Assembly (NCBI RefSeq): GCF_003334315.1
Contig: NZ_QOWR01000019.1
Source of the DNA: Escherichia coli
GTDB taxonomy: Bacteria; Pseudomonadota; Gammaproteobacteria; Enterobacterales; Enterobacteriaceae
Strand: one strand, 5' to 3'
DNA: 64,000 nt
Part shown: positions 35,319 through 64,000 of the stretch, in pieces
How positions within the stretch are numbered: the first letter of the stretch is position 1
Layout: each line of letters opens with the position of its first letter
The notes under the pieces: model-generated
The model's input: the letters and a program-made list of their open reading frames with translations, nothing else
Database searches by the model: none
What the model was told of the DNA's origin: nothing
Program-made: the position numbers and the translations under genes

Positions 35319-35523
35319 GTTCACTGCCGTACAGGCAGCTTAGAAAAACCTACCGTCTTGGCTAGCGGTTGCAGCGAACGTTCACTGCCGTACAGGCAGC
35401 TTAGAAAGGAACAATCTTGCAAAGGCTGTGAAAGTTGGCGTTCACTGCCGTACAGGCAGCTTAGAAATTCACAGGTAACATACTCCACCCACCATGTTCA
35501 CTGCCGTACAGACAGATAAAATG
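35319..35523 (+). CRISPR. Orphan (cas-less) type I-F CRISPR array: 3 full 28-bp repeats plus 1 degenerate terminal repeat, 3 spacers
   Basis: Repeat GTTCACTGCCGTACAGGCAGCTTAGAAA at 35319-35346, 35380-35407 and 35440-35467; degenerate copy GTTCACTGCCGTACAGACAGATAAAATG at 35496-35523. Spacers are 33, 32 and 28 bp. AT-rich putative leader at 35170-35318. No cas genes: clpA lies upstream, tRNA-Ser and infA downstream. Confidence 0.92.
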
Positions 35524-42906: not shown

Positions 42907-45900
42907 TTGAGCCAGGAATACACTGAAGACAAAGAAGTCACATTGACAAAGTTAAGTAGCGGCCGCCGCCTTCTGGAGGCGTTGCTGATCCTTATTGTCC
43001 TGTTTGCCGTCTGGTTGATGGCTGCCTTACTAAGCTTTAACCCTTCGGACCCCAGCTGGTCGCAAACGGCCTGGCATGAACCTATCCATAATTTAGGTGG
43101 GATGCCCGGTGCGTGGTTGGCAGATACGCTGTTCTTTATTTTTGGCGTGATGGCTTACACCATTCCCGTCATTATTGTCGGCGGTTGTTGGTTTGCCTGG
43201 CGTCATCAGTCCAGCGACGAATACATTGATTATTTTGCCGTTTCGCTACGCATCATTGGCGTTTTGGCGCTCATCCTTACCTCCTGTGGTCTGGCGGCAA
43301 TCAACGCTGACGATATCTGGTATTTTGCCTCCGGTGGCGTCATTGGCAGCTTACTAAGCACTACGCTACAACCACTGCTACACAGTAGCGGGGGAACTAT
43401 TGCGCTGCTCTGCGTTTGGGCAGCGGGCCTGACGTTGTTCACCGGTTGGTCATGGGTGACCATTGCTGAAAAACTCGGCGGCTGGATTTTAAACATTCTC
43501 ACCTTCGCCAGTAATCGTACCCGTCGCGATGATACCTGGGTCGATGAAGATGAGTATGAAGACGACGAAGAGTATGAAGATGAAAATCACGGCAAACAGC
43601 ATGAATCACGCCGTGCCCGTATTCTTCGCGGCGCGCTAGCGCGTCGTAAACGGTTGGCGGAAAAATTCATTAATCCGATGGGGCGGCAAACAGACGCTGC
43701 GTTGTTCTCCGGTAAGCGGATGGATGATGACGAAGAGATTACCTACACTGCACGCGGTGTGGCTGCCGACCCGGACGACGTCCTATTTTCGGGCAATCGT
43801 GCAACGCAGCCAGAATATGACGAATACGATCCATTATTAAACGGTGCGCCAATTACCGAACCTGTCGCTGTAGCAGCTGCTGCTACCACGGCGACACAAA
43901 GCTGGGCTGCGCCGGTTGAACCTGTGACTCAGACGCCGCCTGTTGCCTCTGTTGATGTTCCACCTGCGCAACCTACAGTAGCCTGGCAGCCTGTACCGGG
44001 TCCACAAACGGGAGAGCCGGTTATTGCTCCTGCACCGGAAGGTTACCCACAGCAGTCACAATATGCGCAGCCTGCATTGCAATATAATGAGCCGCTGCAA
44101 CAACCAGTACAGCCGCAGCAGCCGTATTATGCACCTGCAGCTGAACAACCTGCGCAACAGCCGTATTATGCCCCTGCGCCAGAACAACCGGTGGCAGGTA
44201 ACGCCTGGCAAGCCGAAGAGCAGCAATCCACTTTTGCTCCACAGTCTACATACCAGACTGAGCAAACTTATCAGCAGCCAGCCGCTCAGGAGCCGTTGTA
44301 CCAACAGCCGCAACCCGTTGAACAGCAGCCTGTTGTGGAGCCTGAACCCGTTGTAGAAGAGACAAAACCCGCGCGTCCGCCGCTTTACTACTTTGAAGAA
44401 GTTGAAGAGAAGCGAGCCCGTGAACGTGAACAACTTGCGGCCTGGTATCAACCGATTCCAGAACCGGTTAAAGAACCAGAACCGATCAAATCTTCGCTGA
44501 AAGCACCTTCTGTTGCAGCAGTACCTCCAGTAGAAGCCGCTGCCGCTGTTTCCCCGCTGGCATCTGGCGTGAAAAAAGCGACACTGGCGACGGGGGCTGC
44601 CGCAACCGTTGCCGCGCCAGTCTTCAGTCTGGCAAATAGCGGTGGACCGCGTCCTCAGGTCAAAGAGGGGATTGGTCCGCAGTTGCCACGACCGAAACGT
44701 ATCCGCGTGCCAACTCGTCGTGAACTGGCGTCTTACGGTATTAAGCTGCCCTCACAGCGTGCGGCGGAAGAAAAAGCCCGTGAAGCCCAGCGCAATCAGT
44801 ACGATTCTGGCGATCAGTACAACGATGATGAAATCGATGCGATGCAGCAGGATGAACTGGCACGTCAGTTCGCCCAGACACAGCAGCAACGCTATGGCGA
44901 ACAGTATCAACATGATGTGCCCGTAAACGCAGAAGATGCAGATGCTGCGGCAGAGGCTGAACTGGCTCGTCAGTTTGCGCAAACTCAACAACAACGTTAT
45001 TCCGGCGAACAACCGGCTGGGGCGAATCCGTTCTCGCTGGATGATTTTGAATTTTCGCCAATGAAAGCGTTGCTGGATGATGGTCCACACGAACCGTTGT
45101 TTACGCCAATTGTTGAACCTGTACAGCAGCCGCAACAACCGGTTGCACCGCAGCAGCAATATCAGCAGCCGCAACAACCAGTTCCGCCGCAGCCGCAGTA
45201 TCAGCAGCCACAACAGCCGGTTGCGCCGCAGCCACAATATCAGCAGCCGCAACAACCGGTTGCGCCACAGCAGCAATATCAGCAGCCGCAACAACCGGTT
45301 GCGCCGCAGCAGCAGTATCAGCAGCCACAACAGCCAGTTGCGCCACAACCGCAGGATACCCTGCTTCATCCGCTGTTGATGCGTAATGGCGACAGCCGTC
45401 CGTTGCATAAACCGACGACGCCGCTGCCTTCTCTGGATTTGCTGACACCGCCGCCGAGCGAAGTGGAGCCGGTAGATACCTTTGCGCTTGAACAAATGGC
45501 TCGTCTGGTGGAAGCGCGTCTGGCTGATTTCCGTATTAAAGCCGATGTCGTCAATTACTCTCCGGGGCCGGTTATCACTCGCTTTGAACTTAACCTGGCT
45601 CCTGGCGTAAAAGCGGCGCGCATTTCTAACTTGTCACGGGACCTTGCCCGTTCACTTTCGACGGTGGCGGTGCGTGTCGTTGAAGTTATTCCTGGCAAAC
45701 CCTATGTAGGTCTGGAGTTACCAAATAAAAAACGACAAACCGTTTATCTGCGCGAAGTTTTGGATAACGCCAAATTCCGCGATAATCCGTCGCCATTAAC
45801 CGTGGTGCTGGGTAAAGATATCGCCGGTGAGCCGGTGGTTGCCGATCTGGCGAAAATGCCGCACTTGTTGGTTGCGGGGACTACCGGTTCCGGTAAATCT

Positions 45901-50399: not shown

Positions 50400-50423
50400 T
50401 ACCCAATTTTTCTGAATCTAAAA

Positions 50424-50446
50424 AGCGCCTGCGGGCGCTTTTTTTG
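50424..50446 (+). terminator. Rho-independent terminator of serS
   Basis: Hairpin AGCGCC-TGCG-GGCGCT followed by TTTTTTT. Confidence 0.8.
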
Positions 50447-50453
50447 TCTCCCT

Positions 50454-50467
50454 TTGATACCGAACAA
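50454..50467. promoter_or_regulatory. FNR binding site of the dmsABC promoter
   Basis: TTGATACCGAACAA matches the FNR consensus TTGAT-N4-ATCAA in 8 of 10 half-site positions; about 170 bp upstream of the dmsA start. Identity with the known dmsA FNR site is from memory. Confidence 0.55.
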
Positions 50468-50637
50468 TAATTACTCCTCACTTACACGTAATACTACTTT
50501 CGAGTGAAAATCTACCTATCTCTTTGATTTTCAAATTATTCGATGTATACAAGCCTATATAGCGAACTGCTATAGAAATAATTACACAATACGGTTTGTT
50601 ACTGGAATCAATCGTGAGCAAGCTTGAGTGAGCCATT

Positions 50638-55549: not shown

Positions 55550-56698
55550 ATGTCCACGTATACCCGGCCTGTCATGCTTTTGCTGTCTGGCCTGCTTTTG
55601 TTGACTCTGGCGATTGCGGTGTTAAATACACTCGTGCCGCTTTGGCTCGCCCAGGAACACATGTCCACATGGCAGGTAGGCGTTGTCAGCTCATCCTATT
55701 TTACCGGCAACCTTGTCGGTACATTGCTGACAGGGTATGTCATTAAGCGCATTGGCTTTAACCGCAGCTATTATCTGGCCTCCTTCATTTTTGCCGCTGG
55801 CTGTGCCGGCCTTGGCCTGATGATTGGATTCTGGAGCTGGTTGGCTTGGCGTTTTGTCGCGGGCGTCGGCTGTGCCATGATTTGGGTGGTTGTTGAGAGC
55901 GCGCTGATGTGCAGTGGGACGTCACGTAACCGTGGGCGTTTGCTTGCTGCGTATATGATGGTTTATTACGTGGGAACGTTTTTAGGCCAGTTACTGGTCA
56001 GCAAAGTTTCAACCGAGCTGATGTCCGTATTGCCGTGGGTTACAGGTTTGACGTTGGCAGGGATCTTACCGCTGTTGTTTACGCGTGTGCTGAATCAGCA
56101 GGCTGAAAACCATGATTCGACGTCAATTACGTCAATGCTAAAACTCCGTCAGGCGCGGCTTGGCGTGAATGGCTGCATTATCTCAGGAATCGTTCTGGGA
56201 TCTCTATATGGCCTGATGCCGCTGTACCTCAATCACAAAGGGGTGAGCAATGCCAGCATTGGTTTCTGGATGGCGGTACTGGTCAGTGCGGGTATCCTTG
56301 GACAATGGCCGATTGGACGTCTGGCGGATAAGTTTGGTCGACTGCTGGTGTTGCGTGTTCAGGTCTTTGTCGTCATTCTCGGCAGTATCGCGATGCTTAG
56401 CCAGGCGGCGATGGCCCCAGCGTTATTCATCCTCGGTGCCGCTGGCTTTACGCTATATCCGGTGGCGATGGCATGGGCTTGCGAGAAAGTTGAACATCAT
56501 CAACTGGTGGCGATGAACCAGGCCTTACTGTTGAGCTATACTGTGGGAAGTCTGCTTGGCCCGTCATTTACCGCTATGCTAATGCAGAATTTCTCCGATA
56601 ATTTATTGTTTATCATGATCGCCAGCGTATCGTTTATCTATTTGCTGATGCTGCTGCGCAACGCCGGTCATACGCCGAAACCCGTTGCTCACGTGTAA
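55550..56698 (+). CDS. ycaD: MFS transporter YcaD
   Basis: 382-aa ORF with 12 predicted transmembrane segments. Confidence 0.9.
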
Positions 56699-56907
56699 AT
56701 GAATTCAAGCAGAGTGTGAACTTACTGTTTCACACTCTGCTTTTTTGTTTCTTCTATCTGACTTGCTTTATTCCAAATTTTATTCGTTTAAAAATAAAAT
56801 GTGCAGCAGGTTATAATTTTGCATTTCGCTATTTCCGCACTTCTTATTTGCCGCGCATAATCCCTCGTTTTACAGATGCCCCTTTAATTTTGGCGAAGGA
56901 TTTGTCT

Positions 56908-58338
56908 ATGGCTGGGAATGTTCAGGAAAAACAGTTGCGATGGTACAACATTGCGCTGATGTCTTTTATCACTGTCTGGGGTTTTGGCAACGTTGTTAAT
57001 AACTATGCCAACCAGGGGCTGGTGGTTGTTTTTTCATGGGTGTTTATCTTTGCACTCTATTTCACACCTTATGCGCTAATTGTTGGTCAGTTAGGCTCGA
57101 CCTTCAAAGATGGGAAGGGCGGGGTCAGTACCTGGATTAAACACACGATGGGACCCGGACTGGCTTATCTCGCCGCGTGGACCTACTGGGTGGTGCATAT
57201 TCCCTATCTGGCACAAAAACCCCAGGCAATTCTGATTGCGCTCGGTTGGGCGATGAAAGGCGACGGTTCGCTAATCAAAGAATATTCAGTCGTAGCGTTA
57301 CAGGGGTTAACGCTGGTGCTGTTTATCTTCTTTATGTGGGTTGCTTCACGCGGTATGAAATCGCTGAAAATCGTCGGTTCTGTGGCAGGGATTGCTATGT
57401 TTGTTATGTCGCTCCTGTATGTGGCGATGGCGGTAACCGCGCCTGCAATTACTGAAGTGCATATTGCGACCACAAACATTACCTGGGAAACGTTCATTCC
57501 TCATATCGACTTTACCTACATTACCACTATTTCAATGCTGGTTTTCGCGGTTGGCGGAGCAGAGAAGATTTCTCCTTACGTTAATCAAACGCGCAACCCA
57601 GGAAAAGAATTTCCAAAAGGGATGTTATGCCTGGCGGTGATGGTTGCGGTTTGTGCCATTCTGGGCTCGCTGGCGATGGGGATGATGTTTGATTCGCGTA
57701 ATATCCCGGATGACTTAATGACCAACGGTCAGTATTACGCCTTTCAGAAGCTGGGCGAGTATTACAACATGGGTAATACTTTAATGGTGATTTACGCCAT
57801 TGCGAATACCCTGGGACAAGTAGCGGCGCTGGTATTCTCGATTGATGCCCCGCTTAAAGTGCTATTAGGTGATGCTGACAGCAAATATATTCCAGCCAGT
57901 TTATGTCGTACCAACGCTTCTGGTACGCCCGTTAATGGCTATTTTCTGACCCTGGTACTGGTGGCGATTCTGATTATGCTGCCGACTCTCGGCATTGGTG
58001 ATATGAACAATCTCTATAAATGGCTGTTGAACCTTAATTCGGTAGTGATGCCGCTGCGTTATTTATGGGTATTTGTTGCATTTATTGCAGTCGTTCGCTT
58101 GGCGCAGAAATATAAACCAGAATATGTCTTTATTCGTAATAAGCCTCTGGCAATGACCGTCGGGATTTGGTGTTTTGCCTTTACCGCCTTTGCCTGTTTG
58201 ACGGGGATCTTCCCGAAAATGGAAGCCTTCACTGCAGAGTGGACCTTCCAGTTGGCGCTGAATGTTGCAACGCCGTTTGTGCTGGTAGGATTAGGACTGA
58301 TATTCCCGCTGCTGGCGCGTAAAGCGAATAGTAAATAA
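56908..58338 (+). CDS. ycaM: APC-family amino-acid transporter YcaM
   Basis: ORF track 56716..58338; start set to the ATG at 56908 (MAGNVQEKQLRWYNIALMSF...), 476 aa. Confidence 0.85.
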   Translation: MAGNVQEKQLRWYNIALMSFITVWGFGNVVNNYANQGLVVVFSWVFIFALYFTPYALIVGQLGSTFKDGKGGVSTWIKHTMGPGLAYLAAWTYWVVHIPYLAQKPQAILIALGWAMKGDGSLIKEYSVVALQGLTLVLFIFFMWVASRGMKSLKIVGSVAGIAMFVMSLLYVAMAVTAPAITEVHIATTNITWETFIPHIDFTYITTISMLVFAVGGAEKISPYVNQTRNPGKEFPKGMLCLAVMVAVCAILGSLAMGMMFDSRNIPDDLMTNGQYYAFQKLGEYYNMGNTLMVIYAIANTLGQVAALVFSIDAPLKVLLGDADSKYIPASLCRTNASGTPVNGYFLTLVLVAILIMLPTLGIGDMNNLYKWLLNLNSVVMPLRYLWVFVAFIAVVRLAQKYKPEYVFIRNKPLAMTVGIWCFAFTAFACLTGIFPKMEAFTAEWTFQLALNVATPFVLVGLGLIFPLLARKANSK

Positions 58339-59247
58339 TTATTGTGGTCGGTGACGCTGACTCTGGCAGATCTGACCCGTTTTTACATAATCGAGAAATG
58401 CGCGCAAGCCGCAGGACATATACTGGCGGTTTGGATAATAGATCTGGAAGCCTGGACGCTCTGTGCTCCAGTCTCCCAGTACACATTCTAAACGACCAGT
58501 ATCAAGGTACTCCTTGATCTGTTCATAGAGCAGATACCCGATACCAGCACCCATCAAAACGGCCTCCAGTTCAGCATCAACATCATCCAGAATGATATTT
58601 CCTGCGACAGCAATTTCCAGCTCCTTTGCAAATTGCTAGTGGAAAGGTTTGCCGCTGGGATAACGAAAAACAACACATTGATGATTAAGCAGATCATGAG
58701 GATGGCGGGGTTTGCCATATCTTGCAAAGTACTCTGGCGTTGCTGCTACACATAATTTCACTGGCGGGCCGATCGCCACGCTGATCATATCTTTTTCGAC
58801 GATGCCACTAAGTCGAACGCCAGCGTCAAAGCCCTGTTGGACGATATCGACAAGAGAGTCGTCAGTTGTGAGCTCGACTTTAATATCAGGATATTCACGT
58901 GTGAAACCAACCAGTAAAGGCATTAAAAATATACGTGCAGCTACCCGGGCGGCATTGATTTTGAGCGTTCCTGTCGGTGTCAGACGAAAATCATTCATCT
59001 CATCTAACATGATCTGAATTTCGTCGAAAGCTGGGCGCAATCGTTCATAGAGATTAGAACCCGCTTCCGTTAACGATACGCTTCGGGTTGTCCGATTGAA
59101 TAAGCGAATTTTAAGACGTTGTTCCAGTGTTTTAATACTATGGCTAATGGCGGACGAGGATAAGCCTAATTCATCGCCCGCTGCACGAAAGCTTTGATTA
59201 CGAGCCACGGCAAAGAAAGTGGCAAAGTCAGACATATTCATCCGCAT
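58339..59247 (-). pseudogene. ycaN: LysR-family transcriptional regulator ycaN interrupted by an in-frame TAG (amber) codon
   Basis: Two same-frame ORFs, 58636..59247 (HTH plus N-terminal part, ends ...RYPSGKPFH) and 58339..58557 (C-terminal part). The frame is open between them except for TAG at 58636-58638 (minus strand). 203+1+26+72 = 302 codons, equal to the intact YcaN length I recall. Confidence 0.8.
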
Positions 59248-59346
59248 TAGTGAAAATCCTTCATTAACTCATCCTGAATCATCACGTTTACAGGATTATG
59301 CCGCCTGCGTAAAGTGCGCTCCAGAACTTAACGTGGAGGTAAAATT

Positions 59347-59936
59347 ATGCAGTCTGAACGTATTTATTTGGTATGGGCCATCCTCGTCATGATTCATTGA
59401 CCGCACATATTGCTGATGCGATCCATCAGCGGGCAATGGAGCGGAAAATACAGGTGACGGAACTCGATTTATATCGGCGTAATTTCAACCCAGTGATGAC
59501 GCTGGAAGATGAACCAGACTGGAAGAATATGGATAAACGTTATTCTCCAGAGGTTCATCAGCTTTATTCAGAGCTGCTTGAACATGACACGTTAGTGGTG
59601 GTTTTTCCTCTCTGGTGGTACAGCTTCCCGGCAATGCTAAAAGGATATATTGACAGAGTATGGAATAATGGGCTGGCTTATGGAGATGGGCAGAAATTAC
59701 CATTCAATAAAGTTCGTTGGGTGGCGCTGGTTGGAGGAGACAAAGAATCATTTGTCCAGATGGGCTGGGAAAAAAATATAAGCGATTATTTGATAAATAT
59801 GTGCAGTTATCTTGGTATTGAAGATGCCGATGTCACTTTCTTGTGTAATACAGTGGTATTCGATGGGCAAGAACTTCATGCGAGCTATTATCAGTCGTTA
59901 TTATCTCAGGTACGGGATATGGTAGATACACTATAA
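59347..59936 (+). pseudogene. ycaK: Flavodoxin-like NAD(P)H oxidoreductase ycaK with an apparent 1-bp frameshift near the 5' end
   Basis: ATG at 59347 with upstream GGAGG gives MQSERIYLVWA, then a stop after 17 codons (59398-59400). The rest of the protein (HPRHDSLTAHIAD...) is in the -1 frame and in the ORF track starts only at ATG 59373 (187 aa). One extra C in the GGGCC run at about 59376-59380 would restore a 196-aa ORF with the family motif IYLVWAHP. Confidence 0.75.
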
Positions 59937-59975
59937 AATGTGTTAAAAACGCTGTAGCAGAATGAAGCGCGGAAT

Positions 59976-60007
59976 AAAAAAGCGGCAACTCAATAAAGTT
60001 GCCGCTT
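59976..60007 (-). terminator. Rho-independent terminator of pflA
   Basis: Minus-strand hairpin GCGGCAACTTTATTGAGTTGCCGC followed by TTTTTT. Confidence 0.75.
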
Positions 60008-60017
60008 TACGGGGAAA

Positions 60018-60758
60018 TTAGAACATTACCTTATGACCGTACTGCTCAAGAATGCCTTTCACGCGTTCCATGGTCTCTTTCTTAGGTGGTTTAACACCGT
60101 CGAGTTTGTACTCTTCACCCATTGCCACCCATTTGTGTTTGCCCAGCTCGTGGTAGGGGAGGAGTTCGATTTTCTCAACGTTGCCCATATCACGGGTAAA
60201 TTCACCGAGGCGATGCGCTGAATCGTCATCGTCAGACCAGCCTGGGACAACAACGTAGCGGATCCACACCTTCACATTTTTGTTCGCCAGATATTTGGCG
60301 AACTCCAGCGTGCGGTGGTTGGAAACTCCAACCAGATTTTGGTGGATCTCGTCGTTCATCTGTTTGAGATCGAGCATTACCAGGTCGGTTACTTCCAGCA
60401 GTTCATCAATCACCGGATCGTAACGACGAACAAAACCGTTGGTGTCCAGACAGGTATGAATGCCTTCTTTTTTGCAGGCGCGGAACCAGTCACGAACAAA
60501 CTCAGCTTGTAGGATTGCCTCACCGCCGGATGCGGTAACGCCGCCGCCGGAAGCGTTCATAAAGTGGCGATAGGTCACCACCTCTTTCATTAAATCTTCA
60601 ACGGTAACTTCTTTACCGCCATGCGTATCCCAGGTGTCGCGGTTATGACAATACAGGCAGCGCATCAGGCAGCCCTGGAAAAAGGTGATAAAGCGAATAC
60701 CCGGGCCGTCTACGGTTCCACAGGATTCAAAGGAGTGAATGCGACCAATAACTGACAT
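60018..60758 (-). CDS. pflA: Pyruvate formate-lyase activating enzyme (radical SAM)
   Basis: ORF track 60018..60785; start set to the ATG at 60758 ([23 protein letters not shown]...), 246 aa; radical-SAM motif [10 protein letters not shown]. Confidence 0.93.
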
Positions 60759-60881
60759 TGCGGTGTTTCTCCAGATGTGGCCCATCTGAGGCCGTGTTGG
60801 TGCGCAGCTCGAAGGCTACGTCGAGTCTGTTTTGGCAGTCACCTTAAAGTATAGATAGCTGACAAAAAAGGCTCTCGCGCT

Positions 60882-60908
60882 AAAAAAGGCCCCACTTTCG
60901 TGGAGCCT
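60882..60908 (-). terminator. Rho-independent terminator of pflB
   Basis: Minus-strand hairpin GGCTCCACGAAAGTGGGGCC followed by TTTTTT, about 40 bp downstream of the pflB stop. Confidence 0.7.
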
Positions 60909-60949
60909 TTATTGTACGCTTTTTACTGTACGATTTCAGTCAAATCTAA

Positions 60950-63232
<2,283 letters not shown>

Positions 63233-63286
63233 GTAACACCTACCTTCTTAAGTGGATTTTTTATTTACTGCGTACTTCGACAACCA

Positions 63287-64000
63287 TTAATGGTGGTCGT
63301 TTTCACGCAGGTAAATGACCCAGTATGTCAACCCAACCAACAAACCACCACCGATAATGTTGCCGATCGTAACCGGAATCAGGTTATCAGTGATGAAATT
63401 CATCACGGTCAGGTGAGAAAAATTTTCCGGTGCAGAACCGACTGCGGTCCAAAATTCCGGGGATGCGAAGTCGCGGATTACAATACCCATCGGGATCATA
63501 AACATGTTTGCGATACTGTGCTCAAAACCGCTGGCAACAAACATCGCGACCGGCAGCACCATAATGAACGCTTTGTCCATCAGGCTGCGGCCAGAATAAC
63601 TCATCCATACTGCCAGACATACCATCAGGTTTGCCAGGATACCAAGACAGACGGCCTCAATAAAAGTATGGTGCACTTTGTGGTCGGCGGTTTGTAGGAC
63701 GTTTAGTCCCCATTGACCATTTGCGGTCATATACTCGCCGGAAAGCCACATTAAAAGTACAAACAGCAGTGCGCCGACCAGGTTGCCAAAATAGACATTT
63801 AGCCAGTTTTTCGCCAACTGACCCCAGGTGATGCGCCCACTCGCCTTAGCAACAACAATCAACACGGTGGAAGTAAAGAGATCGGCTCCGCAGACAACAC
63901 AAAGAATCAGCCCCAGAGAGAAGCAAATGCCGCCAACCAGTTTTGCCATGCCGAAGGGCATTGTGCCTGTGCCAGTGGTTGCTGTGATATAGAAGACGAA
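63287..64000 (-). CDS. focA: Formate channel FocA, 5'-truncated by the window end
   Basis: ORF track 63287..63961 covers the C-terminal part; the same frame stays open to position 64000 (...FVFYITATTGTGTMPFGMAKLVGG...), so the N-terminus lies beyond the window. Confidence 0.92.
   Translation of the reverse strand, partial: FVFYITATTGTGTMPFGMAKLVGGICFSLGLILCVVCGADLFTSTVLIVVAKASGRITWGQLAKNWLNVYFGNLVGALLFVLLMWLSGEYMTANGQWGLNVLQTADHKVHHTFIEAVCLGILANLMVCLAVWMSYSGRSLMDKAFIMVLPVAMFVASGFEHSIANMFMIPMGIVIRDFASPEFWTAVGSAPENFSHLTVMNFITDNLIPVTIGNIIGGGLLVGLTYWVIYLRENDHH

Follow-up and report, generated by a model that had tools for sequence, protein, structure and literature searches.

The ycaK gene in the window analyzed here, a 64,000-nt stretch of the E. 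coli chromosome that extends from ybjC to focA, is with high probability a pseudogene created by a single-base deletion which arose once on one allele and has been inherited vertically since. The loss of one C close to the start of the gene separates the first 11 residues of YcaK from the other 185, and the gene very probably is dead. The lesion is an inherited allele that already is flagged as a pseudogene in public annotation, so that the feature itself is known.

The frame break in ycaK

Pairwise alignment with ycaK of E. coli K-12 MG1655 (b0901; 591 nt, 196 aa) revealed exactly one gap and seven substitutions, five of which are non-synonymous and two synonymous, in DNA sequences that are ~99% identical. 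The gap marks the loss of one C near the start of the gene: the GGGCCC sequence in K-12 is GGGCC in the window, where the remaining CC occupies positions 59378-59379 (Table 1). Across the lesion the K-12 sequence is TGGGCCCAT and that of the window is TGGGCCAT, and the lesion also was evident in an alignment with both K-12 and CP53. The missing base lies in codon 11/12, with the consequence that no single frame encodes the whole of YcaK. Because one C is missing, the native frame that opens at ATG 59347 (MQSERIYLVWAILVMIH) stops after 17 codons at the TGA at 59398-59400, and only the first 11 residues of this peptide are native. The remaining 185 ycaK codons are in the -1 frame. Restoration of the C in silico yielded a 196-aa protein with five substitutions compared to K-12 YcaK. 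A previous sequence-only reading of the window had ascribed the split to one missing C, with 17 codons following ATG 59347 and the other 185 in the -1 frame, and both the alignment with K-12 and inspection of the reading frames bear this out.

The body of the gene persists as an ORF of 187 codons (MGHPRHD...DTL; TAA at 59934-59936) which corresponds to YcaK residues 12-196 preceded by Met-Gly in place of Trp-10 and Ala-11. The closest upstream stop in this frame is the TGA at 59355-59357, and no ATG, GTG or TTG codon occurs in the frame between this triplet and 59373; an alternative upstream start for the body therefore was rejected. A Shine-Dalgarno sequence was not found in the 20 nt that precede 59373 (TCTGAACGTATTTATTTGGT), and ATG 59373 itself is situated within the translated short ORF. 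The native Shine-Dalgarno sequence, GGAGG, is positioned 7 nt ahead of ATG 59347 and is the same in K-12. Thus, the earlier descriptions of a good Shine-Dalgarno sequence at the native start, and of a start at 59373 that overlaps the short ORF and has no such sequence of its own, were accurate. Ribosomes that are recruited by the normal Shine-Dalgarno sequence and ATG 59347 would be expected to synthesize a 17-residue peptide and to terminate at 59398-59400, and some may restart at ATG 59373 after this termination 25 nt downstream.

Table 1. Positions of ycaK, its parts and adjacent features in the window
Feature	Position	Strand	Basis or remark
ycaK, probable pseudogene, whole	59347..59936	+	590 nt (intact alleles 591 nt); collinear with K-12 b0901
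Shine-Dalgarno sequence GGAGG	59335..59339	+	Direct reading of the sequence
Residual 5' frame	59347..59400	+	17 codons plus TGA
Lesion site GGGCC	59375..59379	+	Alignments; 34-nt junction probe
Body ORF, -1 frame, 187 aa	59373..59936	+	NF007280 match from profile position 11
A195T, G>A	59928	+	After the frameshift; alignments with other genomes
ycaN, LysR regulator	58339..59247	-	Premature TAG at 58636-58638; sequence comparison
Terminator-like hairpin between ycaK and pflA	59979..60008		Predicted

The genes around the lesion are arranged in the K-12 order: ycaM (+), ycaN (-), ycaK (+), pflA (60018-60785, -) and pflB (60950-63232, -). The disrupted gene is divergent from ycaN and convergent with pflA, which is its position in K-12 and in other E. 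coli. As the next gene is convergent and nothing downstream is co-oriented, ycaK appears to be monocistronic and the frameshift should exert no polar effect. A promoter scan of the intergenic region gave results that were no better than those for shuffled sequence. In the searchable literature, E. coli YcaK appears only in panels of candidate nitro, quinone or chromate reductases, and YcaN is a LysR regulator that affects neighboring genes (PMC3596305, PMC3695803, PMC9068703). In the papers on ycaK that were consulted, we found no description of the deletion allele, no defined physiological role and no documented activity of YcaK.

Several features elsewhere in the window were recorded in passing. 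The start of the window (1-450) is inside an IS1 element which abuts the region upstream of ybjC; the ORF at 61-438 that ends in …HYLNIKHYQ is presumably the C-terminus of InsB. The sequence at the position of the IS1 element is unrelated in the close relative AH65, and the insertion therefore is specific to this strain. Three CRISPR-DR4 repeats (28 nt, ~61-nt period) are located at 35319-35467 between clpA and the tRNA-Ser/infA region, and we take these to be the small orphan array that is known at this locus in E. coli. Imperfect direct repeats with 87.5% identity and an offset of ~39 nt are internal to ftsK (45124-45354) and presumably represent a repetitive linker region. Matches above the gathering score to the Rfam small RNAs STnc130, naRNA4 and ES036 were found at 50413-50547 (-), 10320-10400 (+) and 9298-9340 (+), respectively, and are unrelated to the ycaK lesion.

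The N-terminal strand and the 187-residue product

The restored protein matched Pfam family PF02525 (Flavodoxin_2) over residues 5-179 with an E value of 8.7e-39, and it aligned with positions 1-196 of the NCBIfam equivalog profile NF007280, scoring 348.5 bits where the cut-off is 162. A score above this cut-off (330.6 bits) also was obtained for the 187-aa ORF, which matched only from profile position 11. Alignment with 39 orthologs that exhibit 41-67% identity and derive from Hafnia, Cedecea, Pantoea, Gilliamella, Burkholderia and other genera showed that the N-terminus reads x-x-Y-I-I-W-A-H-P-R-x-D-S-L-T, in which Trp-10, Pro-13, Ser-17, Leu-18 and Thr-19 are invariant in 40 orthologs. None of the 40 aligned orthologs begins at the MGHPRHD position. 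K-12 YcaK, the closest intact allele and the 39 orthologs from other genera instead all start at least 9 residues ahead of the invariant tryptophan, and therefore the possibility raised by the sequence-only reading that reference YcaK proteins might start at MGHPRHD did not materialize. In the window, one frame encodes Trp-10 and another the HPRHDSLT loop; no continuous frame extends from the N-terminal strand through the remainder of the domain, and the motif that consists of a hydrophobic strand and W10-x-H-P-R-x-x-S-L-T is not united in one polypeptide. K-12 YcaK (b0901, NP_415421.1; NF007280/PRK09739, 'NAD(P)H oxidoreductase') occupies the same locus between ycaN and pflA but is encoded in one frame, whereas in the window the codons for residues 1-11 and for the 185 that follow are in different frames. 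As the frame is split and the body starts at profile position 11, the gene is assigned as a pseudogene of the YcaK family and not as a functional member.

An AlphaFold model of the restored protein was generated from the ortholog alignment (pLDDT 88.5, pTM 0.87) and places strand beta-1 at residues 5-10. The model superposes on NQO-type quinone reductases, with a TM score of 0.86 to 4r81 and further matches to NQO1, NQO2 and 3lcm. The predicted fold is like that of NQO1/NQO2-type reductases and their prokaryotic relatives (4r81, 3lcm, 4gi5, 1d4a), and the N-terminal strand and HP...S loop align with these proteins residue for residue: the alignments to 3lcm and 4r81 begin at residue 2 of those proteins and pair RIYLVWAHP with KILIVYTHP and HVYILFAHP. 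However, the NQO-type reductases share only 17-23% sequence identity with YcaK, and the copy in the window is disrupted. The strand order in the NQO1-type fold is 2-1-3-4-5, in which beta-1 is one of the central strands of the parallel sheet and precedes the flavin-phosphate loop. Because beta-1 is a central strand of this flavodoxin-like sheet, a truncated chain that starts M-G-H-P, which also would be without the invariant tryptophan, is unlikely to fold. The Pfam match, the ortholog alignment and the AlphaFold model agree with the earlier proposal that a conserved N-terminal strand has been lost.

A protein of 187 residues might nevertheless be produced from ATG 59373 and preserve some function as an N-terminally shortened enzyme. 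Its ORF is intact and fits the family model well (330 bits), the product would keep the flavin-phosphate loop HPRHDSLT, and gene callers and some submitters list the ORF as 'NAD(P)H oxidoreductase'. However, ATG 59373 is devoid of a Shine-Dalgarno sequence and is inside a translated short ORF, the product lacks beta-1 (residues 5-10) and has the invariant Trp-10 replaced, the absence of a strand that is central in NQO1-type folds makes it unlikely that the truncated chain folds, none of the 39 orthologs is so short at the N-terminus, and the RefSeq annotation is that of a pseudogene. This alternative accordingly is very unlikely. An observation against a dead gene is that the body ORF remains open over 187 codons and, apart from one substitution, displays no visible decay, as would be expected if the event were recent or if the ORF still were of some use. 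In the reading that is preferred here, namely an inherited pseudogene, the only start available to the body would lack a ribosome-binding site and its product would be without beta-1 and Trp-10. With no usable start and with both of these elements gone, a functional enzyme is not expected, and YcaK protein and activity probably are absent, insofar as this can be read from the DNA. The lesion, the lost conserved strand and the lack of a usable start for the body thus support the earlier suggestion that the gene is probably non-functional.

Distribution and descent of the deletion

A 64-nt probe over the lesion matched 3328 complete E. coli genomes, 135 of them identically and 3193 at <99%; all 57 sampled rows among the <99% matches span 65 nt and so possess the extra base. 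A 34-nt probe that seeds only across the deleted junction detected exactly 135 of 5426 complete E. coli genomes. All matches in the 135 carriers are chromosomal, and the strains originate from pigs, poultry, dogs, frogs and humans in many countries and include an old NCTC strain. The gene is annotated as 'ycaK, NAD(P)H oxidoreductase, frameshifted' at each of the eight carrier loci that were examined, including those of CP53, AH65 and NCTC11023, in which the lesion and haplotype are identical to those in the window. Two NCBI drafts (GCA_012531215.1 and GCA_004172665.1) and an assembly of run SRR16555215 are identical to the window at every base over as much as 5.5 kb, and the exact matches in these independent assemblies encompass the two rarer substitutions in the window. 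The truncated product is recorded on at least 1000 contigs, and the exact 187-aa product with Thr-195 is present on 22 other contigs from draft or run assemblies. As 135 of the 3328 ycaK-bearing complete genomes have a split gene, compared to none of the 39 orthologs from other genera, the split frame is a minority, derived state in E. coli and the intact form is both ancestral and the majority.

The distribution bears on a second alternative in which the lesion is a site of programmed -1 ribosomal frameshifting, or of transcriptional slippage, and full-length YcaK still is produced. A shift would have room in the 43 nt that the two frames share (59358-59400), and a downstream hairpin can form (z-score -2.26 for 59381-59470). 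However, no slippery heptamer of the form X XXY YYZ occurs in the zero frame in 59347-59400, the overlap included, and no homopolymer of four or more bases is present near the overlap except the AAAA in the Shine-Dalgarno spacer. The hairpin is modest and lies ~30 nt beyond the point at which a shift would be required, and the part of it that was aligned (to 59440) is unchanged in intact alleles. Moreover, the split is not conserved, as the gene is a single uninterrupted ORF in 3193 E. coli genomes and in the 39 orthologs of other genera, and carriers have acquired further damage in the form of an IS1 insertion and a ycaN stop. The genes dnaX and insAB' of IS1, in which programmed -1 frameshifting occurs in E. 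coli, likewise comprise two overlapping frames for one protein, but ycaK differs from both in the lack of a slippery heptamer and in an arrangement that is unconserved. Programmed frameshifting or slippage was rejected on these grounds and is considered highly improbable. The caveat in the sequence-only reading that the gene would be non-functional unless ribosomes shift frame thus finds no support in the sequence, and the +1 frameshifting envisaged as a rescue is in the wrong direction: the body is in the -1 frame and would need a -1 (or +2) shift.

The least credible alternative is that the missing C is an indel error of sequencing or assembly in a short homopolymer and that ycaK really is intact: although the lesion affects a run of C, and some long-read platforms typically introduce indels of one base, a caveat that the sequence-only reading itself had raised, this reading was rejected on population evidence and is effectively refuted, since the run is only three bases long, the identical junction recurs in 135 complete genomes from unrelated projects in many laboratories, with one ycaK haplotype among those sampled, the remaining ycaK-bearing genomes differ at the site as described above, NCBI drafts and public-run assemblies match the window exactly, and the exact truncated product is recorded on at least 1000 contigs.

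The preferred explanation, an inherited pseudogene, is supported further by haplotype analysis. Six carriers drawn from across the list of 135 share the ycaK haplotype of the window and differ from it at 59928 only. Two haplotypes were present in the ycaM flank of these six genomes, which is expected after recombination. The nearest intact allele, that of ECONIH4 (WP_001190359.1), is the same as window ycaK with the C restored except at 59928, and 27 other complete genomes score equally with ECONIH4. Relative to this close intact allele, the missing C is a disabling lesion. Four of the five amino acid changes relative to K-12 also are found in the intact ECONIH4 allele, which places these four before the frameshift and A195T alone after it. 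An excess of amino acid changes was rejected as a sign of long decay for this reason.

Over 8 kb (56000-64000) the window differs from AH65 at two positions only, 59928 (G>A) and 58637 (C>T). The first, which produces A195T, was not present in the best 30 complete genomes listed or in the eight carrier loci examined, including those of AH65 and CP53, and it sets a sublineage apart inside the clade that has the deletion. The second change (C>T on the + strand) converts Trp-204 of ycaN to a stop codon (TGG>TAG on the - strand). This ycaN nonsense mutation was found in none of the eight complete-genome carriers examined, and the window differs from those carriers in possessing both 59928 G>A and the ycaN stop. 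Among contigs with the 59928 change, five of eight examined have the ycaN stop. Five independent assemblies (L014-L017 and L020) combine the ycaK deletion, 59928A and the ycaN stop, whereas in L018 and L019 the deletion and 59928A occur together with an intact ycaN, from which the order of events is deduced as the ycaK deletion, then A195T and then ycaN W204*. The lesion thus is shared by descent, as reflected in the common haplotype, with later mutations superimposed upon it (59928 G>A, ycaN W204* and an IS1 insertion). In seven carrier genomes, private changes in ycaN were protein-altering in five cases and silent in two, which is similar to the ratio of 3 to 2 for the K-12 allele in a sample that is too small to conclude that constraint on ycaN is relaxed in carriers. 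Taken together, CCC would have been shortened to CC at 59378-59379 once on one particular ycaK allele, the deletion allele would have passed vertically through a sizeable E. coli lineage, and decay would have continued in a sublineage with A195T in ycaK and then the nonsense mutation in the divergent regulator gene ycaN. The sequence-only reading had allowed that resequencing might recover the extra C and so overturn its interpretation; a read error of this kind is contradicted by the 135 complete genomes, produced in many laboratories, that share the deletion and by the identity of independent assemblies with the window.

Repeated loss of ycaK in E. coli

The ycaN-ycaK-pflA stretch is present in 3322 of 5426 complete genomes, and ~39% are without ycaN-ycaK. 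In O55:H7 (L013), ycaM is retained and ycaN-ycaK is deleted. The entire ycaM-ycaN-ycaK segment is absent from the B2 strain UTI89 (L012), in which ycaD leads directly to pflA. In strain 600055, an IS1 element is inserted inside ycaK that already is frameshifted (L010:1487-2853). A clearly different ycaK allele, at L022:1448-1568 and L023:1448-1568 (GCA_020378785.1; SRR24800222), also lacks this C. It has 11 nt differences, one of which is 8 nt upstream of the lesion, and therefore the same deletion probably recurred independently; the allelic comparison suggests that the GGGCCC site was hit independently at least twice. A W10* mutation (TGG>TGA) disrupts the gene in L024, and an element of the IS21 family replaces the 5' end of ycaK in L025. 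The lesions in L022-L025 were found among truncated proteins that cluster with the 187-aa product. Because proteins with a shortened N-terminus are what this cluster collects, ascertainment accounts in part for the accumulation of lesions at the 5' end. Overall, ycaK has undergone at least seven independent kinds of inactivation, counting the same C deletion on two alleles, and E. coli can dispense with the gene and often has lost it.

For annotation, ycaK in this window warrants a pseudogene call, and the label 'NAD(P)H oxidoreductase', which some database entries give to the 187-aa ORF, should not be carried forward. Beyond correct annotation the finding, very probably an ordinary dead gene, matters little. 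The deletion provides a clean clade-defining marker and, together with 59928 G>A and the ycaN stop, a small example of stepwise decay of a regulator and its target. Selection rather than drift could underlie the stepwise loss of ycaN-ycaK. That loss of ycaK, and then of ycaN, was repeatedly selected instead of reflecting neutral decay is a doubtful proposition; if true, an activity of YcaK, such as reductive activation of a quinone or nitro compound, could be costly in gut or farm niches. The repeated losses suggest that ycaK is of low value or conditionally costly, which may assist in assigning a function to this oxidoreductase.
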